The notes beneath the pieces were generated by a model. That model was not told where the DNA came from, searched no databases, and saw nothing but the letters and a program-made list of their open reading frames with translations. A program made the translations under genes and the position numbers. DNA of 64,000 nt from Casimicrobiaceae bacterium (GTDB taxonomy: Bacteria > Pseudomonadota > Gammaproteobacteria > Burkholderiales > Casimicrobiaceae), in the NCBI GenBank assembly GCA_044223185.1, contig JBGAMF010000007.1:686-64685 (forward strand). Reading direction: 5' to 3'. Positions 42,224-64,000 of the stretch are shown here, one piece after another. Numbering within the stretch: the first letter of the stretch is position 1; the number at the start of each line of letters is the position of its first letter.

Positions 42224-42233
42224 GCCGTCTCCT

Positions 42234-43544: not shown

Positions 43545-43546
43545 GG

Positions 43547-44200: not shown

Positions 44201-44298
44201 GGCGGGCAGGTCACGAGGCAAAAGGCCATTCTAACCCAGCGATTTCGCGGCCCTGCCCCGCCCTGCAGCGGATCGCCCGCCGCGCCCGCGGCGCACGC

Positions 44299-44751: not shown

Positions 44752-44779
44752 CGCGGCAACGGCCGCACGCGGCGTCGCG

Positions 44780-45775
44780 TCAGGCGATCACCGTGTCCGC
44801 GCGCGCCAGCAGGGCTTGCGGAACGGTGACGCCGAGCGCCTTCGCCGTCCGGAGGTTGACGACCAGGTCGAACTTCGTCGGCTGCTCGAGCGGGAGGTCG
44901 CCCGGACGCGCGCCGCGCAGGATGCGGTCGACGTACCGCGCGTGCTGCCGCTCCAGCGCGGGCCAGTCGGGTCCGTACGACAGCAATCCCCCCGCCTCGG
45001 CGTATTCGCGCAGCGTGAACGCGCCCGGCAGGCGGTGCTCGAGCGCGATCGCGGCGATCCGGCTGCGGTTCCGGAACGTGAGGAAGTGCGGCTCCAGCAC
45101 GAACGCCTGCACGTGCGCGCGCGCCATCGCCGGCAGCGCCGCATCCACTTCGTCCGGGCTCGCGTAGTAGAAGAACTCGAGCGCAACGCCGACCGCGCGC
45201 GCGGAGGCGCGCAGACGCCCCTCGTACTTCTCCCGCTGGCCGGGATCGGCGCGCGCGTTGGCAAGCGCGCCGAAGCGTGTTGCCGCCGGCAGGGTCTCCC
45301 TGAGGTAGGCGAGGCGCTTCGCGTCGGTCTCGCCCAGCATCCGCGACACGCCGGTGACGTTGCCGCCCGGCTTCGCGAAGCTCGCGGCGAAGCCCTCCTC
45401 CACCGGATCGACGCCGCTGAACACCATCACGATCGGAACGGCCGAGGTCGCCTGCATCGCGGCAAGCGTGTCCGATCCGCCGAAGGTGGCGATGACGTCC
45501 ACGTTGGCGCGCACGAGCTCGCGCGCCAGTGCGGGCACGAGATCCGCCTTGCCGTCCGCCGCGCGCCGCTCGAAGACCACGTTCTGCCCGTCGACCCAGC
45601 CGAGGTCGCGCAGGGCGAGCACCCAGTTCGACTGCCGGAACTCGGCGTCCGTCCGCATCCCCCCACTGGAGAGCAGGCCCACCCTGCGCACGTTCGCGGC
45701 CGGTTGCGCGCCGGCGGCCGGCACCCACGCGCCGAAGCCCAACGCGGCGCCGGCGACGAACTTGCGGCGGTCCAT
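44780..45775 (-). CDS. Orphan ABC substrate-binding protein (COG2984-like), copy 1
   Basis: MDRRKF leader; LRDLGWVDGQN, PGGNVTG, GGLLSYGPD, PGDLPLEQPTKFDLVVNL.TA. Confidence 0.88.
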   Translation of the reverse strand: MDRRKFVAGAALGFGAWVPAAGAQPAANVRRVGLLSSGGMRTDAEFRQSNWVLALRDLGWVDGQNVVFERRAADGKADLVPALARELVRANVDVIATFGGSDTLAAMQATSAVPIVMVFSGVDPVEEGFAASFAKPGGNVTGVSRMLGETDAKRLAYLRETLPAATRFGALANARADPGQREKYEGRLRASARAVGVALEFFYYASPDEVDAALPAMARAHVQAFVLEPHFLTFRNRSRIAAIALEHRLPGAFTLREYAEAGGLLSYGPDWPALERQHARYVDRILRGARPGDLPLEQPTKFDLVVNLRTAKALGVTVPQALLARADTVIA

Positions 45776-49921: not shown

Positions 49922-50746
49922 TCACTTTGCGCCATTGCCGTTCGCTTCGGCGGGCAGCGCCGCGATGGAGCGAAGGACCGCCCGCACGATGGCCTGCCGC
50001 TTGTCGAGGTCGCCGGTCCTGTTCGGCGTATCGATGTTGAGCGCAAAGAAGACCGGCCCGGCAGGCCATTCGACCCAGCCGACCCACCAGCCGACCTTGC
50101 CGTCCCACCCGGTCTTGGCGCGCAGTATCCAGTCGAACTCCGCCTCGTTGATCATGAGGTCCTTGACCAGCCTCTGGTGCTCGACGCGAAACGGCAGCGC
50201 GTTCCGGTAGAGCTTGCGCAGGAACGCGACCTGTTCCTGCGCCGAGATCGCGAGGTTGCCGTCGACCCAGTAGTCGCCGGCCCGCGCCGTCGGATCCGCG
50301 TTGCCGTAGTCGGCCTCGGCGAGGTACTTCCTCGCCCGCGGCTCCCCGATCCGCTTGGCGAGGATCTGGTACACCCAGAGTGCCGACGTGCGCATCGCGG
50401 ATCGGAGGTCCTGATCCTGGTTGTGGCCCGGCCAGCGGCGCTTCACCCCGTCCCATGGAAAGACCTGGAACTCGTCGCGCACGGCGCCCGCTTCCAGCGC
50501 GAACAGCGTGTGGGGGACCTTGAACGTCGACGCCGGCGAGTACCGAGTCCCGGCGCGATGCGCGTCGTAGACGAGATGCGCCCGGCGACGCGCGCGCTCG
50601 TCGACCACGACGATCGTGCCGGTGGCGCCGGCAGCGTCGAAGTGCGTCTTCCAGTCGGGGCGCTCGGTCTGCGCCTCCCCTGCGGCACGGGCGGCCGGGA
50701 ACGAGAACAGCACGGCGGCGGCCAGGGCGACGCAGCGGATGGTCAT
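49922..50746 (-). CDS. blaOXA: Class D (OXA) beta-lactamase, OXA-2-like group
   Basis: Signal peptide; SPASTFK, S-A-L at the SxV position, YGN, KTG; long stretches match my recollection of OXA-2. Confidence 0.93.
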   Translation of the reverse strand: MTIRCVALAAAVLFSFPAARAAGEAQTERPDWKTHFDAAGATGTIVVVDERARRRAHLVYDAHRAGTRYSPASTFKVPHTLFALEAGAVRDEFQVFPWDGVKRRWPGHNQDQDLRSAMRTSALWVYQILAKRIGEPRARKYLAEADYGNADPTARAGDYWVDGNLAISAQEQVAFLRKLYRNALPFRVEHQRLVKDLMINEAEFDWILRAKTGWDGKVGWWVGWVEWPAGPVFFALNIDTPNRTGDLDKRQAIVRAVLRSIAALPAEANGNGAK

Positions 50747-50939
50747 CAGCCGTTGGCTCGACGCCCGGGCACGAGTCGACGGGCGCGCAGCGGCAAGGCT
50801 GCCCGGCCGCTTGCCCGGCGGGCCAAGCGACACCGGCGGGCGCCGCGCGCGGCCGACAATCGCCAGCGGCGGTTCGGCAGGTGGAAGCCCGGCATCCGCC
50901 GCGTGGGTGGCCGGGTTTGCCGAAAGCGCCATGCGTCGG

Positions 50940-51903: not shown

Positions 51904-52881
51904 CTACTGGATGACCCTGTCTGCACGCGCGAGGACGCCGGGCGGGATCGTCAGGCCGATCCTCCTGGCGGTGTTCAGATTGACGACCAACTCGAACTTC
52001 GCCGGCTGGAGGACCGGGAGATCGGCGGGCTTCGCGCCATTGAGTATTCTGGCCACGTAGAGGGCGGCCTGACGATCGCGGTCCGCGATGCTCTGGGTGT
52101 AGGCCAACAGGCCGCCAGCGTCCGCAAAGCCCTGCCCGGGGGAGGACGACGCGAGCCGATGCTGCATCGCCAGCTCGACGGCACGCTTGTGCGGAAGGCT
52201 CGGCTGGACGATGAGGGCGCTTGCTCGCGCCTTGCCTATGTCCTCGAAGGCGGCGTCCAGCGGCTCGCCGCCGCGCACCGAGAAGATGCGCAGCTCGATG
52301 CCCAGCGACCGGGCGGCGAACTGGTTCTGTTCCAGGAACGTCTTCGTGAAGGTGTCCGCCGCGTTCACGAGCACGGCGACGTGCCTCGCGGAGGGCACGA
52401 TCTGCCGGATCAATTCGAGGTTCTTGGCCGCAAGCTCCGCGGTTGCACTGGATATTCCCGTGACGTTGCCACCGGGCCGGGCGAGGCTGGCGACGAGCCC
52501 CGTTCCCACCGGATCGGCTGCCGCCGCCATGACGATCGGAATCGTCGTCGTGGCCCGTTTGGCCGCCAGGGCGGCCGGTGTCTGGAACGAAACGATGACG
52601 TCGACGTTCAGGCGCACGAGCTCGACGGCCAGCTCGGCCAGACGATCGTTGTTACCTTCAGCCCAGCGCGACTCGACAGCGAGGTTCGTGCCTTCGACAT
52701 AGCCATGGTCCCGCAGGTTCGCCACCAGGGCGGGGGCCCAGCTCGTGCCGCCGGCAACGAAGCCCGGCCCCAGCAGACCGATACGCGCGGGCTTCGCGGC
52801 AGGCGCCTGCGCCAGCACCGACAACGGCGCGGCGAAGGCGCCGGCACCCAGCGCGATGACCAGTTTGCGGCGATGGCTCAA
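51904..52881 (-). CDS. Orphan ABC substrate-binding protein (COG2984-like), copy 2
   Basis: GGAG SD and TTG start; LRDHGYVEGTNL, DPVGTGLVASLARPGGNVTG, PADLPV.QP.KFELVVNL. Confidence 0.88.
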   Translation of the reverse strand: MSHRRKLVIALGAGAFAAPLSVLAQAPAAKPARIGLLGPGFVAGGTSWAPALVANLRDHGYVEGTNLAVESRWAEGNNDRLAELAVELVRLNVDVIVSFQTPAALAAKRATTTIPIVMAAAADPVGTGLVASLARPGGNVTGISSATAELAAKNLELIRQIVPSARHVAVLVNAADTFTKTFLEQNQFAARSLGIELRIFSVRGGEPLDAAFEDIGKARASALIVQPSLPHKRAVELAMQHRLASSSPGQGFADAGGLLAYTQSIADRDRQAALYVARILNGAKPADLPVLQPAKFELVVNLNTARRIGLTIPPGVLARADRVIQ

Positions 52882-53086
52882 TTCGGCTCCTCGGAGGGCT
52901 GCCATTATGTCAAGTTGCGCCGAGGGCAGCATACGAAGGGCTCGCGGCCGGATGCGGGCGCCGATCGGCGATCGAATGCAAACCGGCATGCACTGCCGCG
53001 TGACCCCGGTCGCCGTACGGCAGGTTACGGCACGGCGCCGGCTCGTCATGGAACGACGAAACGGATGGCAATGCGGTGTTCGCGCG

Positions 53087-53176
53087 GCCTGACGGAATGG
53101 CTGACCGGCGGGCCGCGCCAGTGCGGACCAACGTCGAGCCGCATGCCGGCGCGTCCGCTCGAGTGCACGGGCGGGC
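53087..53176 (-). repeat. Degenerate attC (core GTCAGGC, inverse core eroded)
   Basis: GCCTGAC-ggaat-ggctgaccgg...ccgctcgagt-gcacg-GGCGGGC; arm layout like 63511-63591. Confidence 0.55.
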
Positions 53177-53213
53177 CGAAACGCATCGTCCGGCTCGACT
53201 CGATGCAGCACGC

Positions 53214-53316
53214 TCAGTCGGGAAACAGGACTTCGAAGAGCGCCCTGGCCTTTGGCGACAGGTTCCTGGGGTCCGGACGAAGCAGATCGTCGTCGGGCAC
53301 CAATCGGAACCCGGCG
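53214..53316 (-). pseudogene. 3' remnant of an unidentified gene (...AGFRLVPDDDLLRPDPRNLSPKARALFEVLFPD*)
   Basis: Protein-like C-terminus with no start, between the YciI stop and a degenerate attC. Confidence 0.35.
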
Positions 53317-53658
53317 TCAGGACTCCGGATCGTACTGGAACACGCGCAGCTCCTGGTCGCAGCGGCAGGCCTTCGCGATGCGAGCGGCCCATTCGACTGC
53401 CTCCTTGCGCGAGGGAAGTTCGAGCACGGCGAATCCGCCGTCGAGAGGAGCGGCCCACGGATATCCGCCCTCGGCGACTGCGCCATCACCCGAGACGAGT
53501 GCGGGACGAACGGTCTCGTCGATGCCGCCTGCGAAGACATAGACGCCGGCGGCCTTCGCCTCGCCGATCACCGCGTGCGCGTCGCGGCCCACCGTCTCCC
53601 ACTCGCCGTCGGGCACCGCCATCGCCGCGCTTGGAAACGAGATCAGGTACTTGGCCAT
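53317..53658 (-). CDS. YciI/DGPF family protein
   Basis: AAGGAG SD; MAKYLI, AGVYVFAGG, GGFAVLELPSR.EA.EWAA. Confidence 0.85.
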   Translation of the reverse strand: MAKYLISFPSAAMAVPDGEWETVGRDAHAVIGEAKAAGVYVFAGGIDETVRPALVSGDGAVAEGGYPWAAPLDGGFAVLELPSRKEAVEWAARIAKACRCDQELRVFQYDPES

Positions 53659-53693
53659 GCGATTCTCCTTCGGCGAGTAAAGTCGCGGGCCTC

Positions 53694-53795
53694 GGCGAAC
53701 GGTTCCTGCCGGCCGGCGAGCCGGGGAAGGCGGCGGCCCGCCGCGAGCGAAAACCGCGGCTGCAGTGCAGCGTCCGCTTGCGTGGATCGTCAGAC
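53694..53795 (-). repeat. Degenerate attC (inverse core GTCTGAC holding the upstream TGA; core GTTCGCC)
   Basis: Minus strand GTCTGAC-gatcc-acgcaagcggacg...gccggccggcaggaacc-GTTCGCC. Confidence 0.45.
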
Positions 53796-54287
53796 CGTCG
53801 TCCGGCCACGAACCGCCGCCTCGATCACCGCGACGTCGATCTTCTTCATCGTCATCATTGCATCGAAGGCACGCTTGGCTGCGGAGCGATCCGGACCGGT
53901 ATACGCTTTGGTCAACGCGATTGGCGTGATCTGCCAGGAGATGCCCCACTTGTCTTTGCACCAGCCGCATTCGCTCTCCTGGCCGCCGTTGGAGACGATC
54001 GCGTTCCAGTAGCGATCCGTTTCGGCCTGATCCTCGGTGGCGACCTGGAACGAGAACGCTTCGCTGTGCTTGAACGCAGGCCCGCCGTTCAGCCCGAGAC
54101 AGCGAACACCCATCACGGTGAACTCTACCGTCAGCACGTCCCCCAGCCTGCCCGACGGAAAGTCGCCGGGGGCGCGATGAACCGCGCCGAGGGACGAATC
54201 GGGAAAGGTGTCGGCGTAGAACTGCGCAGCTTCCTCGGCATCGCGTTCGTACCAGAGGCAAATCGTATTCTTTGCAATCCTCGTCAT
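53790..54287 (-). CDS. PhnB-like VOC family protein (3-demethylubiquinone-9 3-methyltransferase domain)
   Basis: ICLWY...AEEAA.FY, GLNGGP.F..SEAFSF, CGWCKDKWGISWQI. Confidence 0.9.
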   Translation of the reverse strand: MTRIAKNTICLWYERDAEEAAQFYADTFPDSSLGAVHRAPGDFPSGRLGDVLTVEFTVMGVRCLGLNGGPAFKHSEAFSFQVATEDQAETDRYWNAIVSNGGQESECGWCKDKWGISWQITPIALTKAYTGPDRSAAKRAFDAMMTMKKIDVAVIEAAVRGRTTV

Positions 54288-54485
54288 GCCGCTCTCCCAT
54301 CGAGATCGGAGCGAGCGCCTGCGCCGCTCCCGGATGAAGTCGCCGTGGGTTCCCAGGACCTGGCTGGCAGGTCAGGAGTCCGGGCTTCCCGGAGGTCCGA
54401 CATCCTGCCAGCCAGGTTGGGCATGTTCGGTCGCCGACATTCTCTCCTGACACGCCGGACATCTCGGTAGCGCCACCGTCCTTCC

Positions 54486-54564
54486 GCCAAACGCCCAAAC
54501 TCAGCCGTGGCGCCAGCTTCGCGCAAGCAGATCTGGTGAGGTCGGCTGGAGTGCGTCGTTGGGC
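54486..54564 (-). repeat. attC site
   Basis: GCCAAAC...actcagccg / cggctgGagt (extrahelical G)...GTTGGGC; 79 bp. Confidence 0.8.
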
Positions 54565-54604
54565 GGCATCCGTGAAGAGTCCGCCATCCTCTGAACGAGC
54601 GCGA

Positions 54605-55066
54605 CTACGCCTCGTTGTAGGCTCTCTCGAGCTCGGCCACGTCGAGCTTCACCATCGTCATCATGGCTTCCATCACGGCCTTCACCTTCCTGGGGTTCCT
54701 ATCACGGATCAGCTCGGTGAATCGTCGGGGGACGATTTGCCAGGAAAGACCGAACGGGTCCTTGATCCAACCGCATTGCGTGGGCTTCGCTCCTGCCTTC
54801 ACGAGCTTTTCCCAGTACTCATCCACTTCATCCTGATCCGCGCAGTCCACGTAGAGCGAAACCCCCTCGGAGAAGCTGAAGTACGGACCTCCGTTGTAGC
54901 CCATGAAGCGTTGACCGCCGACGACGAACTCGGCGGAACTGACAGGACCGTCCCTGCCCGTGCGGGCGACGTTGCGTACTTCGGAGTCGGGAAACGTCGC
55001 GGTGTAGAACTCGATGGCCGCTTCGAGCTGGTCGTTGAACATGAGGAAGGGCGTCACCTTGTTCAT
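54605..55066 (-). CDS. PhnB-like VOC family protein
   Basis: KVTPFLMF, YNGGPYF, CGWIKDPFGLSWQIVP; start re-called to ATG 55066. Confidence 0.9.
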   Translation of the reverse strand: MNKVTPFLMFNDQLEAAIEFYTATFPDSEVRNVARTGRDGPVSSAEFVVGGQRFMGYNGGPYFSFSEGVSLYVDCADQDEVDEYWEKLVKAGAKPTQCGWIKDPFGLSWQIVPRRFTELIRDRNPRKVKAVMEAMMTMVKLDVAELERAYNEA

Positions 55067-55102
55067 GGGAATGTCTTCTCCGTGAGTGCGATGCTCTTCT
55101 CC

Positions 55103-55159
55103 GCCCAACGTAGAGTTCGGCGGCGGCCGGCGGCCGTCCGTTGCAACGGCCTGTTGGGC
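55103..55159 (-). repeat. attC site (short, 57 bp)
   Basis: GCCCAAC-gtaga-gttcggcgg...ccgttGcaac-ggcct-GTTGGGC. Confidence 0.9.
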
Positions 55160-55232
55160 AGCTTCTTCACTCGTGCCTTGCCACGGCCGGGTGGTGTCCC
55201 GATTGCGGTGGAAACGGCGGCGCGGCCTTCGG

Positions 55233-55400
55233 TCATTGAATGACGTGATCCGCCCGCAGCAGCACCGACTGCGGGAGGGTGAGGCCCAGGGCCTTCGCGG
55301 TCTTCATGTTGATCACGAGTTCGAATTCGGTCGGCAGCTCGGCGGGCTTTGCCCCCTTGAGGATCTTGTCCACATAGGTGGCGTCCCGCCGGAAGAGTTC
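55233..55400 (-). pseudogene. 3' fragment of COG2984-like substrate-binding protein (copy 3)
   Basis: [55 protein letters not shown]; no 5' part; lacks the usual VEQP. Confidence 0.85.
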
Positions 55401-55559
55401 GACAAAGCTCGGTGCCGGTGACCGTCCCCGCCGACTCCTGGGCCAGGATGCCGACGATCTGCTCATCTGAAAACTTGCTCTTGCGCATGGGCTCCTCCGG
55501 TGGTCAATATACCCGGCAGAGCGTCACCTACCTTGGCCTGGAATTCGGGCGGAAAGTCA
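55400..55559 (-). mobile_element. Truncated IS3-family element (left end plus 30 codons of OrfA)
   Basis: TG-initiated end at 55559; [37 protein letters not shown] then abrupt junction. Confidence 0.8.
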
Positions 55560-55720
55560 AACCCGATCCGCTGCCGCCAGCCACCAGGCGGAAGAGCGGG
55601 ACCGGTGCCGCCTCCTCGGTGCGCAGCGAGCCTTGCATCCAGGAAGACCCCGGCCATTCGCGCAATGCCGCCGGCCAGCGGTGCCGGGAACAGCGCGGCG
55701 ACAATGCGCGATCGCATCAC

Positions 55721-55789
55721 GCCCACCGTTCGAGGAAACGCGGGACCAGCATTGGGACGCCTGGCCCGCCGCTGGGCCTCGTGTTGGCC
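55721..55789 (-). repeat. Possible heavily degenerate attC
   Basis: Minus strand GGCCAAC 14 nt after a stop, cagcggcgggcc arm, GTGGGC end; poor pairing. Confidence 0.3.
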
Positions 55790-55802
55790 GAGGGGTAGGG
55801 AT

Positions 55803-56315
55803 TCACTGCCTGCCAACAGCAGCAGGCTGCCTTTTGGCCACTGCTTGATCCGAGCGCAGGAAGAAGTCCGCAGGCGAGCGGAGCCATTCCCTCTTCTGGT
55901 TATCCCAGTGCGCGCGTTGCCAGCCATTGGGCTCTACGAGGGTCGAGGCCCAGGACGGGACCTCTTCTCCCGGTGCTTGTCCAAGCCCCGCCAAAAAGCA
56001 AACTTCCTCGCCGGTCCGGGTCCTGACGCGTCTTGTTCCAAAGGTGAAAGGCGACTCCAGACCGCTGAAGTCGCGCGCGGTTGTTCCACCGTAGACCTTG
56101 CGGCTTCCCGCAAGGCAGACCACATGGCTGCGTAGACAGGCCAGGAAAGCCTTACACAAGCCCTTCATGGGCTCGTCACTGCAGCCTTTGTTTCCCGTTA
56201 GATTGGGGATGACCAAACCACCGGCCGTCTCCGCAGCCTCGCAGGTGTTCGCATCGGCGGGACTGCAGGTCAGCGCGACAGCGGTGAACGCTGCGATGGC
56301 AATTGACAGGTTCAT
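55803..56315 (-). CDS. Hypothetical secreted Cys-containing protein (cassette)
   Basis: Starts 7 nt after a core site; signal peptide; several Cys; no family recognised. Confidence 0.6.
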   Translation of the reverse strand: MNLSIAIAAFTAVALTCSPADANTCEAAETAGGLVIPNLTGNKGCSDEPMKGLCKAFLACLRSHVVCLAGSRKVYGGTTARDFSGLESPFTFGTRRVRTRTGEEVCFLAGLGQAPGEEVPSWASTLVEPNGWQRAHWDNQKREWLRSPADFFLRSDQAVAKRQPAAVGRQ

Positions 56316-56321
56316 TGCGAG

Positions 56322-56405
56322 GCCTGACGGACAAAGCCAATCGGCCGCGAGCGGACGGCGCGCCAGCGCCGCCGGCGGGCGGTCCGGTTGAGCGAGGGTT
56401 CAGGC
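56322..56405 (-). repeat. attC-like site with GAC/GTC variant R boxes
   Basis: GCCTGAC-ggaca-aagccaatcgg-ccgc...gcggT-ccggttGagc-gagg-GTTCAGGC; both extrahelical bases present. Confidence 0.7.
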
Positions 56406-56427
56406 CGCAAGCAATGCCGCGAGGCGC

Positions 56428-56880
56428 TCATCGGATGAGGCGTGCACGCGCTTGAAGGACTTGCGGAATCGTGAGCCCGAGCGACTTCGCGGTCGCCATG
56501 TTTATGGAGAGCTCGAACCCGGTGGCCTGCTGGATCGGCAGATCACCGGGTTCGCCCCCTTCAGCAACTTGTCCACCAACGCGCCAGCGCGTCGATACCC
56601 TTCGAGCCGGTACGGGCCGTAGCCGATCACGCCGCCGGCGTCGGCGTACTCGTTGATCGCGGACGCCGAAACCAATCGATGCTTCAATGTCGACTCGGCG
56701 ACGGCTCGGGCGTTTACGGCGAACATGGTATCGCCTTGCACGAGCGCGGTATCGCACCGCGCTCTCTCAGCCTTGTCAAGGAAACCGGCGAGCTCAGCCG
56801 GCGTCCGCGCCTCGAACATCGACAGACGATTCTTGAACCACGCCGCCGTAGACTGCATCGCCGGCGTGCTTGTCGTGTGA
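56428..56880 (-). pseudogene. 3' half of COG2984-like substrate-binding protein (copy 4), frameshifted near 56549
   Basis: EYADAGGVIGYGP...VDKLLKGANP / GDLPIQQATGFELSINMATAKSLG in two frames; no start. Confidence 0.8.
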
Positions 56881-56910
56881 TCCGCAGGATTGGCAAGGTA
56901 CGCTACGCGC

Positions 56911-56917
56911 GTTAGGC
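56911..56917 (-). repeat. Isolated inverse core (GCCTAAC) of a truncated attC
   Basis: GTTAGGC on + strand, 7 nt beyond the dehydrogenase stop; no matching arm. Confidence 0.5.
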
Positions 56918-56924
56918 GTCAACA

Positions 56925-57872
56925 TCAATGTTGCTCGACGAAGCGCGGAACACTGTCACCGCTCAGATGTTTCAACAGTACATCGGCGACAGCGTCGGCA
57001 AAGTCCTCGTACTTCTTGTCGGTGGGCCAACCCAAATGCGGCGTGAGAATGACGTTTGGCAACGTCAACAAAGGATGACCGCGCGGTAGCGGCTCGCAGT
57101 CGAATACATCGAGACCGGCGCCTGCAATTCGACCGTCCGCCAGCACCGAAACCAGCGCAGCTTCATCAACGATCGGCCCACGAGCGGTGTTGATCAAACA
57201 GGCGGTAGGTTTCATGAGCCGAAGCCGCCGAGCGTCAAGCAACCCTCGCGTCTCGGGTGCGAGCGTCGCGTGCACTGAAACGACATCCGATTCCCGCATC
57301 AGATGATCCAGATCGCACCACTCTGCACCCAGCGACGCCGCGGCGCCATCGTCGCGACGACGGCTCCAGGCGAGGACTCGCATGTCGAAGGCTCGTGCGA
57401 TCTTCGCGACATGCATACCAACGTGCCCGAGTCCGATGACGCCAAGCGTCTTGCCATTGAGCTCGTGACCCAACGGGGCAGGCCAATGTCCGGACTTCAC
57501 GGCAGCGTCAGCCGCCGGTATGTGTCGCAGCAACGCAATGGTGAGGCCGATGGCCAATTCCGCCGCACCGGTGGAGAAGCCACCGCTCGCCTTTGCCACA
57601 ATCACCCCGCGCTCCCGGGCGGCCGCCAAATCGACGTGGTAAGCGTGGTTCCCGGTCTGCGCGAGAATCCGGAGATCGGGCAATCGCTCGAAGAGCGCCC
57701 GAGTGAATTTTGTGCGTTCGCGGTTCGCTACGAGGGCATCGAATCCACGCAATGCCGCTGCATCGCCAAATGGACCGACGAATATCCGAACCTCGGCTCG
57801 CTCCCTCAGCCGTCGGACGGCCTCGGTACGCTCATACGCCTGGTGGATATCATCAAGAATGGCGACATGCAC
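56925..57872 (-). CDS. D-2-hydroxyacid dehydrogenase family protein (cassette)
   Basis: GGAGG SD and GTG; VAILDD, GVIGLGHVG, LINTARG, LDVF..EP, TPHLG. Confidence 0.92.
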   Translation of the reverse strand: MHVAILDDIHQAYERTEAVRRLRERAEVRIFVGPFGDAAALRGFDALVANRERTKFTRALFERLPDLRILAQTGNHAYHVDLAAARERGVIVAKASGGFSTGAAELAIGLTIALLRHIPAADAAVKSGHWPAPLGHELNGKTLGVIGLGHVGMHVAKIARAFDMRVLAWSRRRDDGAAASLGAEWCDLDHLMRESDVVSVHATLAPETRGLLDARRLRLMKPTACLINTARGPIVDEAALVSVLADGRIAGAGLDVFDCEPLPRGHPLLTLPNVILTPHLGWPTDKKYEDFADAVADVLLKHLSGDSVPRFVEQH

Positions 57873-57889
57873 CTGCTGCCTCCATTGAC

Positions 57890-57979
57890 GCCTGACGAAA
57901 AAGGCGAGCGGCGCGCCGCCGCGGCGCCCGCCAAGTAGAAGCTGCGTACCGACGCGTCCGCTCGACCGCAGGATCAGGC
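57890..57979 (-). repeat. attC-like site with GAC/GTC variant R boxes
   Basis: GCCTGAC-gaaaa-aggcgagcgg-cgcg...cgcgT-ccgctcgAcc-gcagg-ATCAGGC; holds the hicB TGA. Confidence 0.75.
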
Positions 57980-58185
57980 CGGTACGTCGACGCACCGAAC
58001 CGAGCCAGTTGGCGCGGGAATGGGGGTACCATCTTCGCGCATGCCCTCAAGGTGAACTCGATAGCGTCGCGGATCTCCCGCTCGACTTCCTCGACGGTCG
58101 CGCCTGTAGCAACGCAGCCGGGAAGATCAGGAACGTCTGCCGAGTAGTTGGGCCCGGCGCTTTCGATCACGATCGCGTAGCGCAT
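57974..58185 (-). pseudogene. hicB: HicB antitoxin, frameshifted near 58053
   Basis: MRYAIVIE...YSADVPDLPGCVATG.T..E....I..AIEF / HLEGMREDGTPIP.P in two frames. Confidence 0.88.
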
Positions 58186-58195
58186 CTGGTTCCCC

Positions 58196-58383
58196 TCACC
58201 TCGTCGCGCCCGCCTGCTCTCGAATGCTATCGAGTGTCCCAGGAGCGCGTTCGTCGCTTGGCTTGCCAGGAACAGTGACTCGCCGGGTTTCGGCGGATGC
58301 TTGAACCGACGATGACTTCCGCGAGTGGCGACCAGGAACCACCTCTCGTCAGCAAGCAGCGGGAGCATCTCGCCCACCTTAAC
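58196..58383 (-). pseudogene. hicA: HicA mRNA interferase, frameshifted near 58281, start codon degraded
   Basis: W.LVATRGSHR.FKHP.KPG / RVTVPGKPSDE.APGTL.SI in two frames. Confidence 0.88.
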
Positions 58384-58426
58384 GCGCGGGATTATGCGCT
58401 CTCGGCCACGAGCTTCTCAACCTGAG

Positions 58427-58445
58427 GCCAAACGGGATTCAGGCC
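58427..58445 (-). repeat. Collapsed attC (both R boxes, central stem deleted)
   Basis: Minus strand GCCTGAA-tccc-GTTTGGC containing the SMI1/KNR4 stop. Confidence 0.5.
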
Positions 58446-59059
58446 TCAGTGCGGACAGCGTTGCCACGGTTGTCCTTTAGTTCGTTGATCCACCATTGGC
58501 GATTCTCGTCAGGGGTCACAAACCTCATGTGGCTCGCGATTGCAGTTAGTCGCGAAGTGTCCAGGTCCAGATTTCTCTTGACGAAGTCCGGCAAGCTCTG
58601 ACCCAACTCGACGAACTCGAATCCATCGTGTTCGAACTCGAAGACCCTTCCCGTGTATGGCCCGGCAGCAGGTACCAGGAGATAGTTGCCGCTTCGCGGA
58701 ATCTCTCCAACTACCAGGCAGTTCTTGATCCAGTCCGGCAGATAGTCTTCTTCCTCGTCCTCTTCGATACATTCCAGCCATGGCCTGAAACAACTATCCA
58801 GCTCGGGCCACTGTGAAGGACTTGCAATGAAGAAAGCGGCGTCTCCGCTCTCCTCCTCAAAATAGAGTGTGAGCTGCGCAAACGTGTCGTAGAAGTCCCG
58901 AAGTCCTTGAACGTCGGGCACGTCAACACTGGGGTCCGGTGGAAATGCAGCGTGACGGAAGCTCACGGCCTTGGTGTTCTTCTCGCTATGAATCTCACTG
59001 CAGATGAACTGCCCGACGTGTGACTGCACTTCGGAGCGTAGTGATTCGAGTGTGGGCAT
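58439..59059 (-). CDS. SMI1/KNR4 (SUKH) family immunity-like protein (cassette)
   Basis: L.DFY, VGEIP.SGNYLL, G.VFEFEHDG, SL.DFV; acidic. Confidence 0.7.
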   Translation of the reverse strand: MPTLESLRSEVQSHVGQFICSEIHSEKNTKAVSFRHAAFPPDPSVDVPDVQGLRDFYDTFAQLTLYFEEESGDAAFFIASPSQWPELDSCFRPWLECIEEDEEEDYLPDWIKNCLVVGEIPRSGNYLLVPAAGPYTGRVFEFEHDGFEFVELGQSLPDFVKRNLDLDTSRLTAIASHMRFVTPDENRQWWINELKDNRGNAVRTEA

Positions 59060-59092
59060 TGATCTTCCGAGGCGACGAACGGTGATTCGGAG

Positions 59093-59170
59093 GCCTAACG
59101 TTCGAGTTCACTCGCAGCCGGAAGCAGGCGAAGCCTGCTGGAGGCTGTCGGGTGCAACGACGGGTTAGCC
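59093..59170 (-). repeat. attC site
   Basis: GCCTAAC-gttcg-agttcactcg-cagcc...ggctgT-cgggtGcaac-gacgg-GTTAGCC; 78 bp. Confidence 0.95.
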
Positions 59171-59179
59171 CGCACGCTG

Positions 59180-59389
59180 CTACTTCCAGGCGAGGTTGAG
59201 CTTCTTACCAGATGCTGCGCACTCCTTGAGATAGAGGTTGATCAGACTCTGGTAAGGGATGCCGGTCTCGGCCGACATGGACTTGAAGTACGTGATTGAC
59301 TGTTCGTCAAGCCGAATGGTCACCGGCTTCTTAAGTTGCGACGCGTACGGGTTCTTTCGGGAAGCGCTGAAGTCATACTGCTTGCGCAT
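59180..59389 (-). CDS. brnA: BrnA/CopG-like antitoxin
   Basis: MRKQYDFS..RKNPY, KKPVTIRLD, GIPYQSLINLYL. Confidence 0.9.
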   Translation of the reverse strand: MRKQYDFSASRKNPYASQLKKPVTIRLDEQSITYFKSMSAETGIPYQSLINLYLKECAASGKKLNLAWK

Positions 59390-59397
59390 GGTGTCAC

Positions 59398-59676
59398 CTA
59401 TCGGTAGAAGCCCTGTTCCTCGCGCGTGGCCTTGCGCGCGGAGATGATACGGATGATGCCTCCTGCTTCACGATAGCAGTGCGCTACGACCAGTAGGCGC
59501 AAGCTGCTGCTGAGGCCAAGGAGAAGAAAGCGCTCTTCGTCTACCGAGTGGTCCGGATCATCGATCAGGCGGGCGCGCTCATCGGCAAACACGGACTCCG
59601 CGTCCTCGAACGACACGCCGTGCTTGCGGAAATTGGCCGCCGCCTTGCGAGGGTCCCACTCAAAGCGCAGGCTCAT
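59398..59676 (-). CDS. brnT: BrnT toxin
   Basis: FEWDPRKA..N.RKHGVSFE.A, D.DHS..E.RF, IRIISARKAT. Confidence 0.93.
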   Translation of the reverse strand: MSLRFEWDPRKAAANFRKHGVSFEDAESVFADERARLIDDPDHSVDEERFLLLGLSSSLRLLVVAHCYREAGGIIRIISARKATREEQGFYR

Positions 59677-59712
59677 GCCGACATTGTATGTACAACGTAC
59701 GTATACCGCAAC
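59677..59712 (-). promoter_or_regulatory. Cassette-borne brnTA promoter/operator
   Basis: TACAAT -10 just before the ATG; ttgta-tg-tacaa inverted repeat. Confidence 0.55.
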
Positions 59713-59728
59713 CCGGGGCCTTCGTGCG

Positions 59729-59815
59729 GGCTAACGCTACCAGCTAACCGGCGCGTGCCAGCGGCCGCCGAAGGACGGCCGCGGGACACGCGTGCGGTTG
59801 AGCGCCGGGTTAGGC
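59729..59815 (-). repeat. attC site
   Basis: GGCTAAC...agctaaccgg / gcggttGagc...GTTAGGC; holds the higA TAA; 87 bp. Confidence 0.95.
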
Positions 59816-60070
59816 CGCAGATTCAAGGGGCACTTCCCAACCTGGAAACACCAGCACGGCTGGGTGACACTTGAGCGCCCGGGCAAGTGCCTTTGCGCGT
59901 TCAACACCCAGATTCACTCGGCCGTTCTCGATTGCGGAAATGGTGGCCTGCGAGATTCCCGTCAGATCAGCGAGTTGGCTCTGGCTCAGTTCCTGAAGCT
60001 CGCGCAGGATCCGCACAGACTCACCAGGAGTGACATCGATACGATTCTTGGCAGGACGAAATGATTTCAT
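59810..60070 (-). CDS. higA: HigA-like XRE HTH antitoxin
   Basis: LSQSQLADLTGISQATISAIENG HTH. Confidence 0.85.
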   Translation of the reverse strand: MKSFRPAKNRIDVTPGESVRILRELQELSQSQLADLTGISQATISAIENGRVNLGVERAKALARALKCHPAVLVFPGWEVPLESAA

Positions 60071-60071
60071 A

Positions 60072-60356
60072 TCAAGGCTTTCGATAATCGTGCGGAGTTA
60101 CGTGAATCACTTGAATCAATAGCACTTCAGCAGAGACGCGATAGATCACGCGCCACTGCAAGCCAAGTCGAGATGAACGATGACCCTTCCATTCACCCGA
60201 CAGGGCCTCGTCGTGGAATCCCTTAATCATTCTCAGCCCGGGAGGTCCCGAGAGTCTGGCAACGTCCTTCCACTTTTCGTACCGCTTCAGAATCTCGATG
60301 GGGACCGCGCCAGCAAGTTGCTTGTCGACGCGACGATGCTCTTCGATCCGCCACAT
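60072..60356 (-). CDS. higB: HigB/RelE-superfamily mRNA interferase
   Basis: GFHDEALSGEWKGHRSSRL..QWRVIY; toxin-first order. Confidence 0.85.
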   Translation of the reverse strand: MWRIEEHRRVDKQLAGAVPIEILKRYEKWKDVARLSGPPGLRMIKGFHDEALSGEWKGHRSSRLGLQWRVIYRVSAEVLLIQVIHVTPHDYRKP

Positions 60357-60359
60357 GCC

Positions 60360-60391
60360 ATATTATGTATATATCTAATATGGCATGTCAA
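60360..60391 (-). promoter_or_regulatory. Cassette-borne higBA sigma70 promoter with operator
   Basis: TTGACA-N18-CATAAT on minus strand; ATATTA-N10-TAATAT inverted repeat over it. Confidence 0.7.
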
Positions 60392-60419
60392 GCTCGCGGC
60401 GCGGCTCCAGTGCCGTTCG

Positions 60420-60510
60420 GCCTAACGTTCAAGTTAACCGGCGCCCGGCCACCAGCGGTCGGAAACAAGAAACCATGTGCCCGGGCGTCCGGTTGAACGC
60501 AGAGTTAGGC
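60420..60510 (-). repeat. attC site
   Basis: GCCTAAC-gttca-agttaaccgg-cgcccgg...ccgggcgT-ccggttGaac-gcaga-GTTAGGC; 91 bp. Confidence 0.96.
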
Positions 60511-60527
60511 CTGAAATGGGGAGCCAA

Positions 60528-61580
60528 TCAAGCTCCACCACCAAGGATTTTGATATAGCTCTGCTCTTTATCTCGAAGGTCCCATGTTGCCTGGATATGT
60601 CGCGTTAACTCCGGCAAATCGGTTTCAATCGTAGTCCGCCAGAGATGTGCTTTGTACTCAAAGACACGCAACATGTTGTCCACATCAAATACGCGACCCG
60701 TTCCCGTAGCCTTGATGATCGAAACCGGCCTATTCGTCATCATGCGAATGCCTAGCTCGAACAGCACATTAGGATTGTGTTCCGTCAAGTCGCATATGAC
60801 GAGATCAGCCTCCAACAACTCCTTGATGATGGTCGATTGGATCAGGTCGCTGCCTTGTCGGTTTGCCGTTCTTACTTGGAAACCTGCTTCGACTGCCGCC
60901 GGTGTGATAAGGCTTCGGAGCACTTCGGTGAAGAACCCGCTAGCATGTGTTGCTTCTCGTTCTACAAACGGCATGATCACAAAAGCTACAAGATTTGATG
61001 CTGTCTTCGGTTCGCCTACCACAACCGTGGTCTTGGTCTCGGCGGCCCTTTGCGGCGGCGAGCCAGGAGCATCACCGGCCTTGATTCCAAGATACTCGGA
61101 ATTGGCTCGAAAGAGCTTTGAAAATTCTTCGTGCTGCTCGGGCAGGAGTCCAAACTCTCTCTCCAGCGTGTTACCGAGATACTTCATTTCTGGCAGATCA
61201 CTGCCCTTGTAGTGATCGAACACTCGACGAAAGATGTCGACCCCCAGGAATGCTTCCGTTTTCTTTTCTAGCTCAGCTGCCGGGTCCGGAGCGTAAACAA
61301 TCGCTCTGCCCAGATCGGTGAGCTCCACCTTCGGGGTATTTCGAGTGCCGATCGTCAGTCCGAAGTCACGGGAAGCGGCGGTCGTGTAGTAAAACTTGTT
61401 GGTCTTGTGGCTCATGCTCAAGGCTGCGGCTAGATCCTCCACAGCCCATGGATTGCCACCATTCTTCTCCTTGATCGCGACTGGGACTTCTAGCGCTATC
61501 TCAAGAGGCAGGGTCGGAAAGGTGACCTTCGGCTTTTCCGCCTTCGGTGCAGTCTTTTTCGTACCTTTCTTCGCCGCCAC
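60528..61580 (-). CDS. Winged-helix plus nucleoside 2-deoxyribosyltransferase-like (NDT) two-domain protein (cassette)
   Basis: N-terminal FP...LE.AL, FGLT.G, VELT.LG.AI; C-terminal AFVIMPF, ADLVICDLTEHNPNVLFELG. Confidence 0.7.
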   Translation of the reverse strand: MAAKKGTKKTAPKAEKPKVTFPTLPLEIALEVPVAIKEKNGGNPWAVEDLAAALSMSHKTNKFYYTTAASRDFGLTIGTRNTPKVELTDLGRAIVYAPDPAAELEKKTEAFLGVDIFRRVFDHYKGSDLPEMKYLGNTLEREFGLLPEQHEEFSKLFRANSEYLGIKAGDAPGSPPQRAAETKTTVVVGEPKTASNLVAFVIMPFVEREATHASGFFTEVLRSLITPAAVEAGFQVRTANRQGSDLIQSTIIKELLEADLVICDLTEHNPNVLFELGIRMMTNRPVSIIKATGTGRVFDVDNMLRVFEYKAHLWRTTIETDLPELTRHIQATWDLRDKEQSYIKILGGGA

Positions 61581-61604
61581 AATTTTCTCCCTCTGAATAT
61601 TCGA

Positions 61605-61629
61605 ATCTAACGTTGGACTTCACCCGGTC
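61605..61629 (-). repeat. Half attC (core GTTAGAT plus one L arm); other half deleted at the upstream stop codon
   Basis: ATCTAAC-gttgg-acttcacccgg parallels the matching arms at 59093, 60420 and 63005, then runs straight into TGA 61630. Confidence 0.7.
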
Positions 61630-62976
61630 TCACCAGCGCACTTTCCACATTCCGCCTCCGGTGCAGGTGCCGCAATGCTGCAAACTCTTCCAGTCGTTGC
61701 GCCCCGTGACCTTCTCAAGCCCCTTTCTTGCCTTGTCGGCTTTCGCCGATCCTTGCCAAGACGTGTGACCACAGTCTGCGACCTCGACTAAGACATCGTA
61801 TGCGCCCTTGCTATGGGTTTTCTTGTAGAAGCGCACCTCACCCGACCCGGGGTCGGTGGACTCTGAAACGGTGGTGGTTTCGTCCGGGTCTTGGATCTCT
61901 GGCGCCTTCAGCTGGCTAAGTGCGTGTTCAGCCATGTCAGCACGAGCCGCAGTTCGAGCGAGTTCGCTCTGTAGTTGCTCCACTGTGTTCTTGAGATCCT
62001 GGTTCTCATTGATGTACAGACGAGCAATTGCGAGTTCTTCAGAGTTGGGCGCTGCGCGCGCCTCAAGTTCCTCAATCCGACCGCGCGCAACGGCATCCCG
62101 GACTTCTCGAATTCCAACGGGCGGGGTAATTGAGAGCGCAGCCGTCGACATCAGCATTCTGCGCAATGTGGATCTGAGACGATTGAGACCTTTCCCGTCG
62201 CGGTCATTGGACAGGAGCACAGATGCGGTCCAGACGGTACTATTGAAGGTTCCGTCTGGCCTGTTGCGAGGGGGCCAATAGAGGCGGACCGCGCCGCGAT
62301 AACACGAATGCAGTTTCCCGACCTCATCAGACAGGGTCCAGGTTGCATCGTCATCAATCGAGATCACATGGGCAAGACCTGCGAGGTCGAAAGCAAGTTC
62401 TTCTGCGAGCCTGGGCCAGAGTTGTTCACCCTCGATCTGTGACACGACCACGATGGGTAGGCTGCGGTTCCCGCTCCGAATCTCATTGGCAAGTTCCTTA
62501 CCGCCCGTCTCACCAGCGAGGGAGCGTGGCGTAGTTCCACCTATTGTAGTGCCGTTGAGAGTCCAGTCGGCGAACTGATCCAGCAGGGTCCGGACAATCG
62601 ACGGGCACCGCGGGTCGTTCGGCAGCGGAGCAACAATACTGGCAGAGTTCGCAACGCTCAGCGTGCAGTAGATTCTGAGTCGCCCGGCGACCGCCACCGC
62701 TGAGATATGTGTCGTGAAGATCTGACCGGCCCGCGTGAACTCCTCGAGTCGAACTTCGTGAAGGGCGCCGAGATGGACTATCTGCTCCTCGCGGGAGAAA
62801 ACTCCACTCCCATCCTTCGTCAGAGACTCGAACTCACCCGCGTTGAGCGAAGGATCGGCTGCCCCCTTACTTTGGAGCCAGGTAGACATGTTGTGGCGAA
62901 CGGCATCCAATCGACCCTGAAGCTCAGCGTCGGAGAATGTCGGGGATTCGAGAAGGTATGCCGAAAGCACTTGCAT
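61630..62976 (-). CDS. Hypothetical 448-aa protein with coiled coil and C-terminal Cys/His cluster (cassette)
   Basis: Begins 28 nt after the core at 63005; LPIVVVS, LAGLAHV, CYRGAVRLYWP; DCGH...HCGTC. Confidence 0.85.
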   Translation of the reverse strand: MQVLSAYLLESPTFSDAELQGRLDAVRHNMSTWLQSKGAADPSLNAGEFESLTKDGSGVFSREEQIVHLGALHEVRLEEFTRAGQIFTTHISAVAVAGRLRIYCTLSVANSASIVAPLPNDPRCPSIVRTLLDQFADWTLNGTTIGGTTPRSLAGETGGKELANEIRSGNRSLPIVVVSQIEGEQLWPRLAEELAFDLAGLAHVISIDDDATWTLSDEVGKLHSCYRGAVRLYWPPRNRPDGTFNSTVWTASVLLSNDRDGKGLNRLRSTLRRMLMSTAALSITPPVGIREVRDAVARGRIEELEARAAPNSEELAIARLYINENQDLKNTVEQLQSELARTAARADMAEHALSQLKAPEIQDPDETTTVSESTDPGSGEVRFYKKTHSKGAYDVLVEVADCGHTSWQGSAKADKARKGLEKVTGRNDWKSLQHCGTCTGGGMWKVRW

Positions 62977-63004
62977 AGTGGCAGGGAGGCTTTAGGTGCG
63001 TCGG

Positions 63005-63073
63005 GCCTAACGTTTGACATGAGGGGCTTGACCCGGCTTGCCGGGGCAAGTCCCCTCGATGGAAGGGTTAGGC
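63005..63073 (-). repeat. attC site
   Basis: GCCTAAC-gtttg-acatgagggg-cttg...caagT-cccctcGatg-gaagg-GTTAGGC; holds the upstream TAA; 69 bp. Confidence 0.96.
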
Positions 63074-63487
63074 CGCACTGTGATGGCCCAACTGCTTAAG
63101 CCCGGCTAGGTTGTCCCACTCCGCCCAAGCCTCGACGATGCGCTCGTTCTCGATGCGATAGATGGCCAGATACGCAGCGTCAAGCACTCGCCCAGAGGCA
63201 GGGTAGGGCCCCATTGAACCGAGCTGGGTTCCTCGAAACTGATGCCTGGCGGCGACTTTGTCATCTTCTGCCACGAGGTCCAAGAGCGTTTCGCGTGCGT
63301 CTGGGAACGTAGCGAACTCCATCTTAAGAAATGCAACCAACGCCTCGGCGGACTGAACGCTCGATTCGCCTGCGGCGACGCTGTGCCTGACGAAACGCTC
63401 ACCGATGAGGCCACGGAGCCGAGGCCAGTCTTGCTCGTTGATTGCCTCAACGAAAGCGCTGACTAGAGCTTTGTTCTTCTCGGACAT
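63068..63487 (-). CDS. SnoaL-like ester cyclase family protein (cassette)
   Basis: NKALV..FVEAIN, FPD, LVAEDDKVAAR..F.GT..G, YRIEN.RIVE.W. Confidence 0.88.
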   Translation of the reverse strand: MSEKNKALVSAFVEAINEQDWPRLRGLIGERFVRHSVAAGESSVQSAEALVAFLKMEFATFPDARETLLDLVAEDDKVAARHQFRGTQLGSMGPYPASGRVLDAAYLAIYRIENERIVEAWAEWDNLAGLKQLGHHSAA

Positions 63488-63510
63488 AGTGAGGTGTTGG
63501 TTCTTGTGCG

Positions 63511-63591
63511 GGCTAACGAAAAAGGTGACCGGCGCGCGAAAGGCGGGCGAAGCCACGCCGAGGCGCGTCCGCGTTGACCGCCGGGTTAGGT
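63511..63591 (-). repeat. attC site
   Basis: GGCTAAC-gaaaa-aggtgaccgg-cgcgc...gcgcgT-ccgcgttgacc-gccgg-GTTAGGT; 81 bp. Confidence 0.9.
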
Positions 63592-63601
63592 TGCATAGGC
63601 G

Positions 63602-63871
63602 CTACCGCGACTTGCTAAGCCGCTCGGCCATTCGGGTCTGCCAGCCTGGGCCGGTAGCTTTCCAGCGCTCGATGACGTCGACCGGCAGGCGGATGGAGAT
63701 GAGCTTGCGCGGATTCGCCGACAGCGGACGTCCGCCCTTGTTCACGACGGCGCGAGCCAAAGCCTGCTCCGTCAAAGCCGGCAACTCCGTGTACTCGTGC
63801 GCCCGTATCGAGTGAGCATCGACCTTGGTGAGGTCAGATTTCAAAGAACGGCGCGAGGCGGTCTTTCTCAC
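63602..63871 (-). CDS. brnA: BrnA antitoxin (DUF4415 type)
   Basis: GGRP....RKLISIRLP.DVIE.WKATG.GWQTRM. Confidence 0.92.
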   Translation of the reverse strand: MRKTASRRSLKSDLTKVDAHSIRAHEYTELPALTEQALARAVVNKGGRPLSANPRKLISIRLPVDVIERWKATGPGWQTRMAERLSKSR

Positions 63872-64000
63872 GTTGGTTGGCCTTTCGCATGCTGAAAATG
63901 TGGCGAGCGTTTCCTCTCGGCGTGTAGCCGACGACGACTAGGCGGCCGCCAAGCATGCCGTAGCAGATGATGCGCGGCTCGCCATAGTTCCTGCGCAGGT
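63834..64000 (-). CDS. brnT: BrnT toxin, 5' part outside window
   Basis: Manual translation LRRNYGEPRIICYGMLGGRLVVVGYTPRGNARHIFSMRKANQRE...*. Confidence 0.88.
   Translation of the reverse strand, partial: LRRNYGEPRIICYGMLGGRLVVVGYTPRGNARHIFSMRKANQREKDRLAPFFEI

Follow-up and report, generated by a model that had tools for sequence, protein, structure and literature searches.

The window analysed here is a stretch of 64,000 nt (C53:686-64685) from a metagenome-assembled genome (MAG) of 4.18 Mb in 192 contigs with 72% GC. Coordinates refer to the window unless another contig is named, and positions beyond 64000 continue its numbering on contig C53. From left to right, the window contains a his operon with hisG as its last gene (38001-44203), about 9 kb (44.3-53 kb) of co-oriented genes at host GC, and, from 53087 onward, an integron cassette array, in which attC recombination sites on the + strand alternate with cassette genes on the - strand. 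GC content drops to 52-65% from 54 kb rightward, compared with 72% in the genome. HisD is most similar to its counterparts in an uncultured betaproteobacterial MAG (G005; 79% identity) and a Casimicrobiaceae MAG (77%), followed by other Betaproteobacteria (64-69%), and shares 44-45% identity with those of two Lysobacterales-type genomes (Frateuria and a Lysobacterales MAG). The highest scores among foreign attC sites also came from a Casimicrobiaceae MAG. By these similarities, the uncultured soil or freshwater host is a betaproteobacterium close to Casimicrobiaceae, in agreement with the betaproteobacterial host proposed in an earlier reading made from the DNA letters alone (the sequence-only reading).

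The attC sites were located with a covariance model (R1) and a strict pattern (RYYYAAC-N35-140-GTTRRRY). At its distal end, the array contains an attC-like site at 53087-53176 (29.5 bits), with the R' core GCCTGAC, a degenerate R'' and both an extrahelical T and G, followed by an attC at 54486-54564 (43.3 bits), which folds, a 57-nt attC matching the strict pattern at 55103-55159 (39.5 bits) and a weak attC-like site with non-canonical ends at 55721-55801 (22.4 bits, E 0.019 over the window). Two variant sites at 56322-56405 (49.8 bits) and 57890-57979 (69.8 bits) have the cores GCCTGAC...TTCAGGC and GCCTGAC...ATCAGGC, respectively. Further attC sites are located at 59093-59170 (63.6 bits), 59729-59815 (69.8 bits), 60420-60510 (75.2 bits), whose core is a natural recombination breakpoint, 63005-63073 (52.5 bits) and 63511-63591 (73.3 bits), the last being 81 nt long with three extrahelical bases. 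The remaining 1.2 kb of C53 past the window continues the array with three more sites, at 64188-64268, at 64347-64469 in a cassette with an HbpS-like gene, and at 65118 (R1 match 65131-65198, 22.2 bits), within which the contig breaks. The incomplete array thus contains at least 15 attC sites with heterogeneous arms and lengths of 57-123 nt, which lie in the range of 57-141 nt described for these imperfect palindromes; three sites have GAC in place of AAC in their core, and the two weak sites have degenerate ends. All seven sites with RYYYAAC/GTTRRRY ends listed in the sequence-only reading lie where it had placed them, while four others between 53087 and 64000 (53087, the weak 55721, 56322 and 57890) had been overlooked. 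A gap of just 78 nt (64269-64346) separates the first two sites past the window, apparently representing a cassette without an open reading frame (ORF).

R1 was home-made from 11 aligned sites of the array, with the R-box/L-box pairing imposed by hand because RNAalifold returned no structure for the raw MAFFT alignment of these sites, in which the variable loops were misaligned. Run over the 64-kb window with filters off, it gave + strand matches of 22-75 bits confined to 53087-63591; the best match outside the array reached 20 bits and the reverse strands of array sites at most 23.5 bits. Three sites absent from the training set were recovered, namely 53087-53176, 55721-55801 and the attC at the end of C53. 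The palindromes, for which failure against an attC covariance model had earlier been considered, therefore pass R1. The strict pattern has seven matches on C53, all between 55103 and 65194 and hence in the last 10.8 kb of the contig. Its genome-wide version, which requires the ends to be at least 6/7 complementary, found eight loci in the remaining 4.17 Mb, all of them GTTCAAC/GTTGAGC coincidences and none with a stem, and a chance origin of the strict-pattern sites in the array is excluded. The genome-wide R1 search scored 150 of 19607 candidates and was backed by the strict whole-genome pattern search and by unfiltered runs on selected loci. Sites resembling attC beside small ORFs were also identified elsewhere in the genome, at C92:6869-6946 (-), C92:7207-7284 (-) and C109:12941-13018 (+), scoring 43.9, 24.2 and 35.8 bits, respectively, and may represent solitary cassettes at secondary sites.

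Folding with DNA parameters gives an imperfect hairpin for each array site, the bulges being located on the 3' arm. Standard pairs account for 89% of the pair cells in the R1 alignment, compared with 26-44% when the partners are slid, and compensatory changes occur in 14 of 21 pairs; none of 500 shuffles reached the observed values, although the alignment tested had been fitted to the model. The bottom strand of attC carries 5'-RYYYAAC-3' in R' together with two extrahelical bases, a G in L'' and, at a distance of 6 bp, a conserved T, both of which sit on the arm opposite the AAC triplet (PMC5027507). In the array, the + strand of the sites has the AAC core at its 5' end, and the 3' arm contains the extrahelical T in 13 and the G in 11 of 14 sites, with a spacing of 3+3 bp and a third extrahelical base in two sites. 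As this geometry is that described for the bottom strand, the + strand is the recombinogenic bottom strand. All cassette ORFs are on the - strand with the attC of each to the left, so that both the extrahelical bases and the ORF strands bear out the earlier proposal that the cassettes read leftward. The attC of the HbpS-like cassette (64347-64469) differs between C53 and its metagenome copies (L114, L120 and others) in both arms together (GGCAGCAGCACCAC.../...GCTGCCGCTGGTGCC vs CTAAGCTGGCGCCAAC.../...GCCGTTGGCGCTCAGC), and its predicted hairpin appears to be maintained despite these differences.

An independent test of R1, which was trained on this array alone, used 0.92 Mb of sequence around 61 unrelated intI genes, with intI set to the + strand. 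At E <= 0.01, the model produced 132 matches, 126 of them on the + strand and all of these upstream of intI, thereby detecting attC on the expected side and strand at 30+ unrelated intI genes. The remaining six matches are on the - strand downstream of intI at two Candidatus Eisenbacteria MAG loci (L040 16494-18390 and L070 20564-20621); these differ from all other loci, which suggests that in Eisenbacteria the array is located on the opposite side of intI. In a class 1 integron from an Escherichia coli IncF plasmid, R1 identified attC(aadA5) with 43.6 bits and attC(dfrA17) with 19.4 bits, and nothing further above 16 bits in the 15-kb region. These results bear on the possibility that the palindromes are unrelated repeats, such as repetitive extragenic palindromic elements or terminators, whose likeness to an integron is coincidental. 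High-GC genomes are rich in hairpins, and no curated Rfam family confirms the sites: an Rfam scan of the window at gathering thresholds returned one tRNA only, Rfam having no attC family. However, the sites are limited to one 12-kb stretch and one strand and share an extrahelical T and G spaced by 6 bp, and the explanation is refuted by the detection of attC sites beside unrelated intI genes and in the class 1 integron, as well as by rearrangement breakpoints that fall at the cores (see below), leaving it a negligible probability.

Neither the window nor the rest of C53 encodes an integrase, as the sequence-only reading had noted for the window. A whole-genome search with TIGR02249 identified one full integron integrase, encoded on contig C164 (C164:453-1394, +) with 469.5 bits against a cut-off of 265; the protein also scores 435.5 bits against NF011946 (cut-off 435). 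The intI gene is intact, extending on the + strand from about 252/453 to 1409. Its product aligns end to end with VchIntIA (PDB 2A3V; E 3e-86) with one single-residue indel, keeps the catalytic R-K-H-R-H-Y positions (motifs RLR, HGKGG, HTLRH, GH and IYTH) and contains the IntI-specific LPxAL..KYP..W..FP segment between patches II and III. C164 thus encodes the type of tyrosine recombinase, including the IntI-specific insert, that had been suggested as a search target. This IntI shares 62.3% identity with IntI1 and no more than 67% with the integrases of named genomes, which are mostly Betaproteobacteria. At the left end of C164, a leftward ORF from 227 to 3 runs off the contig start and represents a partial first cassette (1-237). 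Upstream of intI the sequence reads ...GTCATGGCGTCTAAC|GAGATGTAGG..., with GTCTAAC|GAGATG containing an attI-like crossover, GTCTAA|C, at about 232-238. These sequence features mark the left end of C164 as a first cassette abutting attI. The order on C164 is therefore cassette, attI-like junction, rightward intI, and then queF and aroA.

C53 ends inside an attC and C164 begins in a leftward cassette, and the two ends face each other in the correct orientation. In the related MAG G005, a single contig contains homologues of window 38001-44203 (the his operon, hisG last) and of C164 1483-9385, including queF and aroA, only 1.6 kb apart; an attC search of this 1.6-kb interval detected none. Furthermore, metagenome contig L121 (ENA ERZ28615704) matches C164 3773-227 (99.4% identity) and then window 65126-64422 (97.7%), with the switch inside CCTAAC, giving the order aroA-queF-intI-attI directly followed by the HbpS-like cassette. 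A single 3.5-kb metagenome contig (L126) likewise carries C164 1-98 (100% identity) together with the HbpS-like cassette. Based on the synteny with G005 and on L121, the locus consists of the his operon, 9 kb of host-GC genes, the cassette array, a gap, the first cassette, attI, intI, queF and aroA. The attI and divergent intI predicted in the sequence-only reading to lie beyond 64000 are thus present on C164 in the predicted orientation, while the array itself also continues past 64000 on C53; the absence of further attC sites or an intI downstream, which that reading had counted as a possible outcome, was not what was found.

Alternatively, the array could be a cluster of attC sites lacking an integron integrase (CALIN), having lost or been parted from its integrase, with the C164 intI belonging to a separate small integron. 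Consistent with this, no intI is present in the window or on C53, C53 and C164 are not joined in the assembly, the first cassette of C164 differs from the cassette at the C53 end, and genome rearrangements that split integrons are known (PMC4889954). However, the two contig ends are oriented at each other and each is broken in or at an attC, a typical assembly break at repeats; the flanks lie 1.6 kb apart in G005; L121 physically joins intI-attI to a cassette of the array; L126 carries the start of C164 with the HbpS-like cassette; and the genome has one full intI only. With a complete integron being defined as intI plus at least one attC nearby (PMC4889954), and because the intI and attI of C164 are linked to C53 by G005 synteny and by L121, a CALIN is rejected at the genome level and considered very improbable. 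The array and the C164 intI most probably form one complete chromosomal integron of the soil and freshwater proteobacterial type that was split over two contigs by the assembly. Contiguity of C53 and C164 in this particular genome is inferred. No k-mer overlap of 15-55 nt was detected between the C53 end and any other contig, and several different cassettes precede the HbpS-like cassette on public contigs from different samples, so that look-ups of exact proteins did not uniquely close the gap. Chimerism of the MAG was considered separately and rejected, as C53 and C164 each contain host-like stretches of tens of kb for which synteny exists with a single contig from a relative.

Cassettes of the array are widespread in public assemblies. 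Blocks with the exact protein number 40 for the SnoaL-like, 140 for the HbpS-like and 34 for the ABC_sub_bind cassette gene, and the cassette-bearing contigs are all shorter than 10 kb, as expected from arrays broken at repeats. Copies share 95-100% nucleotide identity with the window and occur in different orders. The 9-kb contig L120 consists of window 52464-60445 joined to 64348-65198 and lacks exactly the cassettes from 60427 to 64347; here and in L122, L123 and L129, window 60426 continues at CCTAA|C into the attC that belongs to the HbpS-like cassette. In L125 and L128, attC 59093 is joined directly to the HbpS-like cassette, L128 having the order ABC_sub_bind, YafQ-like/HTH, BrnTA, HbpS-like, while in L121 the same cassette is placed directly at attI. 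Beyond the core at the proximal end of this HbpS-like cassette (GAGGCTTGTGGCG CCTAAC), six alternative neighbours were identified, comprising the ABC_sub_bind attC, attI, attC 59093 and three further sequences; its distal core is preceded by three different sequences. An ABC_sub_bind cassette (327 aa; L122 96-1079) was also found in several contexts and is truly mobile. Every switch in order falls at the canonical crossover in the core CCTAA|C, a pattern characteristic of IntI-type recombination, both between attC sites and between attC and attI. This shows that the cassettes are mobile in nature and are exchanged as discrete units, rather than being fixed in related genomes, a possibility that had been raised at the outset. 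There are clear signs that this shuffling is still under way in natural populations.

The integron is flanked by core genes, with the his operon on one side and queF and aroA on the other, and the intI-queF-aroA junction recurs at 99.4% identity in a second sample (L121). Within the genus, intI was identified in 13 of 24 species genomes, with 57-77% identity to the C164 IntI and including some pseudogenes. A tblastx comparison of C164 and C53 with the intI loci of nine relatives (eight of the same genus and one from another family of the order) revealed no shared flanks. A tenth locus, the his region of G005, is fully syntenic with C53 and C164 and represents an empty site without an integron. 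The integron is thus chromosomal and flanked by core genes, and its position is lineage-specific. Accordingly, the earlier description of a sedentary integron stands in part: the core-gene flanks, which recur in L121, agree with it, whereas the flanks are not shared by the nine relatives' intI loci and the site is empty in G005. Moreover, the large homogeneous attC array used as a criterion for sedentary integrons is not seen here, with sites of 57-123 nt and heterogeneous arms.

These observations also touch on the possibility of a mobile integron, in which intI and array would have been acquired recently between hisG and queF on a mobile element and might move again. The empty site in G005, the lack of shared flanks among the nine relatives' intI loci with their 57-77% identical integrases, attC lengths as heterogeneous as in mobile integrons (PMC4889954) and the 62% identity to IntI1 would be compatible with such an origin. 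Conversely, neither a transposase or Tni module nor inverted repeats were observed beside intI, the neighbouring queF and aroA are syntenic with G005, the intI-queF-aroA junction is conserved in another sample and the closest plasmid match reaches 63%. Recent acquisition on a mobile element is therefore regarded as improbable, though less so than a CALIN.

Taken together, we consider it highly likely (probability about 0.92) that window 53087-64000 represents the distal portion of a cassette array belonging to a complete chromosomal integron, carried by a betaproteobacterium close to Casimicrobiaceae. The array runs to the end of C53 and, after a gap, would resume on C164 with part of the first cassette, attI and the divergent intI. 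Following the established integron model, from which these steps are taken, IntI would bind the folded attC bottom strand, here the + strand, and cleave between A and C of 5'-AAC-3'; cassettes would be excised by attC x attC recombination and re-inserted at attI, and the promoterless cassettes would be read leftward from a promoter near attI/intI. Both catalysis of the rearrangements by the C164 IntI and expression from a Pc promoter are inferred. Several points weigh against this interpretation. R1 is home-made, and its matches to the sites used for training follow from the way it was built. With GAC replacing AAC or with a degenerate R'', three or four distal sites depart from the consensus, and these may be inactive. 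The source genome is a MAG of 192 contigs and may be a population composite, C53 and C164 are not joined in this assembly, and a strain-specific rearrangement could have separated the array from intI. Furthermore, the observed natural rearrangements could be the work of another IntI, the activity of the C164 enzyme being predicted from sequence, and a sigma-70 scan of C164 1-900 found no match to the Pc consensus near attI, although such a scan is crude for an organism with 72% GC.

Contrary to the sequence-only reading, the array does not abut the his operon, as the 9 kb of genes between hisG and the last attC are free of attC sites: none was detected in 44.3-53 kb with R1 run unfiltered. The genes in this stretch encode two ABC_sub_bind proteins, an amidohydrolase, a GFA and a VOC-family protein, and a class D beta-lactamase-like protein (49922-50932), which contains a penicillin-binding transpeptidase domain (PF00905, E 1.3e-42) and has the size of class D beta-lactamases. 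We tentatively consider that these genes could have started out as cassettes, with subsequent loss of their attC sites and a drift in GC content towards that of the host, although this is rather doubtful. In favour of such an origin, the hisG-queF interval is just 1.6 kb in G005, and the genes are co-oriented and belong to cassette-typical families, with an ABC_sub_bind gene of the same family being a mobile cassette in metagenomes. On the other hand, no relic attC is detectable in 44.3-53 kb. If true, the integron would be a source of lasting gene additions to the core chromosome, even as shuffling continues at its proximal end in present-day populations.

All genes of the array described below are encoded on the - strand. 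The most distal ORF (113 aa, 53317-53658) belongs to no known family in Pfam, NCBIfam or PADLOC; a 79% identical homologue adjoins intI in a genome of the same genus (G019). It is followed by a PhnB-like gene (PF06983, 165 aa, 53790-54287), and no attC was detected between the two, which constitute one or more distal cassettes spanning 53317-54287. A second PhnB-like cassette gene (PF06983) at 54605-55066 is 153 aa long as called in L120. The next cassette contains a C-terminal fragment of an ABC_sub_bind protein (PF04392, E 3.5e-7, profile positions 242-292 of 293) at 55233-55466. Orphan genes or fragments of the ABC_sub_bind type (PF04392) occur along the locus at 44493-45728, 51904-52900, 55233-55466 and 56428-56858, and G019 encodes several ABC_sub_bind paralogues on the array side of its intI. 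Two cassette ORFs of 170 aa (55803-56315) and 118 aa (56502-56858) have no family in Pfam, NCBIfam or PADLOC, and the same applies to a 206-aa ORF at 58439-59059. A D-isomer-specific 2-hydroxyacid dehydrogenase (PF02826, E 5.7e-64; 315-aa call in L120) is encoded at 56925-57872. Next to its stop codon, an isolated GTTAGGC at 56900-56925 without a matching 5' arm may be a truncated attC where a deletion fused two cassettes. The adjacent HicB-like ORF (57853-58377), with a HicA fragment at its N-terminus identified with Pfam, has a reading frame that continues through attC 57890-57979 and looks like a fused or decayed HicAB module.

Furthermore, the array contains toxin-antitoxin cassettes for BrnT (92 aa) and BrnA (69 aa) at 59180-59676 (PF04365, E 1.6e-28, and PF14384) and, identified by profile search, for a YafQ-like toxin (94 aa) with an HTH_3 antitoxin (86 aa) at 59810-60356, as well as another cassette for BrnA (89 aa) with BrnT (91 aa) at 63602-64000, which extends past the window to 64109. 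A SnoaL-like gene (PF07366, E 4.8e-28, 139 aa) is located at 63068-63487, and the HbpS-like cassette, also recognised by profile search, occupies 64348-65123 beyond the window. The cassette at 60528-62976 carries two genes encoding proteins of 448 and 350 aa, with matches in PADLOC only and nothing in Pfam or NCBIfam. Between them, only a half-site (TCTAACGTTGG...; TCTAACGTTGGACTTCACCCGG, about 61597-61618) and no R1 attC match was found. The 448-aa protein matches HEC-07, a candidate defence family (E 3.7e-26), and the 350-aa protein shows a weak match to a TIR-type effector model (E 6e-6); together, the two proteins may constitute a cassette-borne anti-phage pair. Metagenome variant L118 has 10 nt in place of the 95 nt at 61460-61554, within the 5' portion of the gene for the 350-aa protein, resulting in a 336-aa call, while the remainder is 99.9-100% identical. 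With four toxin-antitoxin modules, small enzymes and ORFs without a family, the cassette content is typical of chromosomal integrons. Chromosomal integrons have recently been reported to store anti-phage systems (bioRxiv 10.1101/2024.07.02.601686), and the HEC-07-like candidate defence pair in the array agrees with these reports (bioRxiv 10.1101/2024.07.02.601686).

The locus is a solid if unremarkable case of a system that is already well known, and it leaves the understanding of how integrons work unchanged. For an uncultured Casimicrobiaceae-like lineage, it adds a fully documented integron with integrase, attI crossover and at least 15 attC sites, whose IntI falls in the same broad group as the clinical IntI1. 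In addition, cassettes of identical type (95-100% nucleotide identity) in dozens of public assemblies, in varied orders including at attI, constitute a natural data set in which in situ integron activity and cassette turnover could be quantified without cultivation.

Among known systems, the integron resembles those on the chromosomes of environmental Betaproteobacteria, which make up the soil and freshwater IntI group and were identified here in genomes of Azonexus, Usitatibacter, Nitrosomonas, Thiobacillus and Casimicrobiaceae. With these it shares 59-67% IntI identity, a divergent intI with the attC bottom strands upstream on the intI coding strand, and cassettes for toxin-antitoxin modules and small enzymes. 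The 80-81 nt attC sites of a Casimicrobiaceae MAG integron score 56-66 bits with R1. Unlike these, its site between hisG and queF is not shared with the relatives examined, and its attC lengths are more heterogeneous than those of the homogeneous arrays at loci L066 and L080. It has the recombinase family with the hallmark insert and the attC architecture in common with class 1 integrons, whose aadA5 and dfrA17 sites are detected by R1. However, its IntI is not IntI1 (62.3% identity), Tn402 and 3'-conserved segment contexts are lacking, and the array carries no resistance cassettes and is located on the chromosome between core genes. Similarities to the Vibrio cholerae superintegron include the full-length alignment of IntI with VchIntIA, interspersed toxin-antitoxin cassettes and some sites with three extrahelical bases, as in V. 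cholerae repeats (PMC5027507), whereas the present array, in which at least 15 attC sites were counted, is far smaller and its attC sites do not form a homogeneous repeat family. Taken alone, the window or C53 would fit the operational definition of a CALIN (PMC4889954), from which the locus differs in that the corresponding intI and attI are present in the genome, at the contig end that faces the array, and are connected to it by a metagenome contig.

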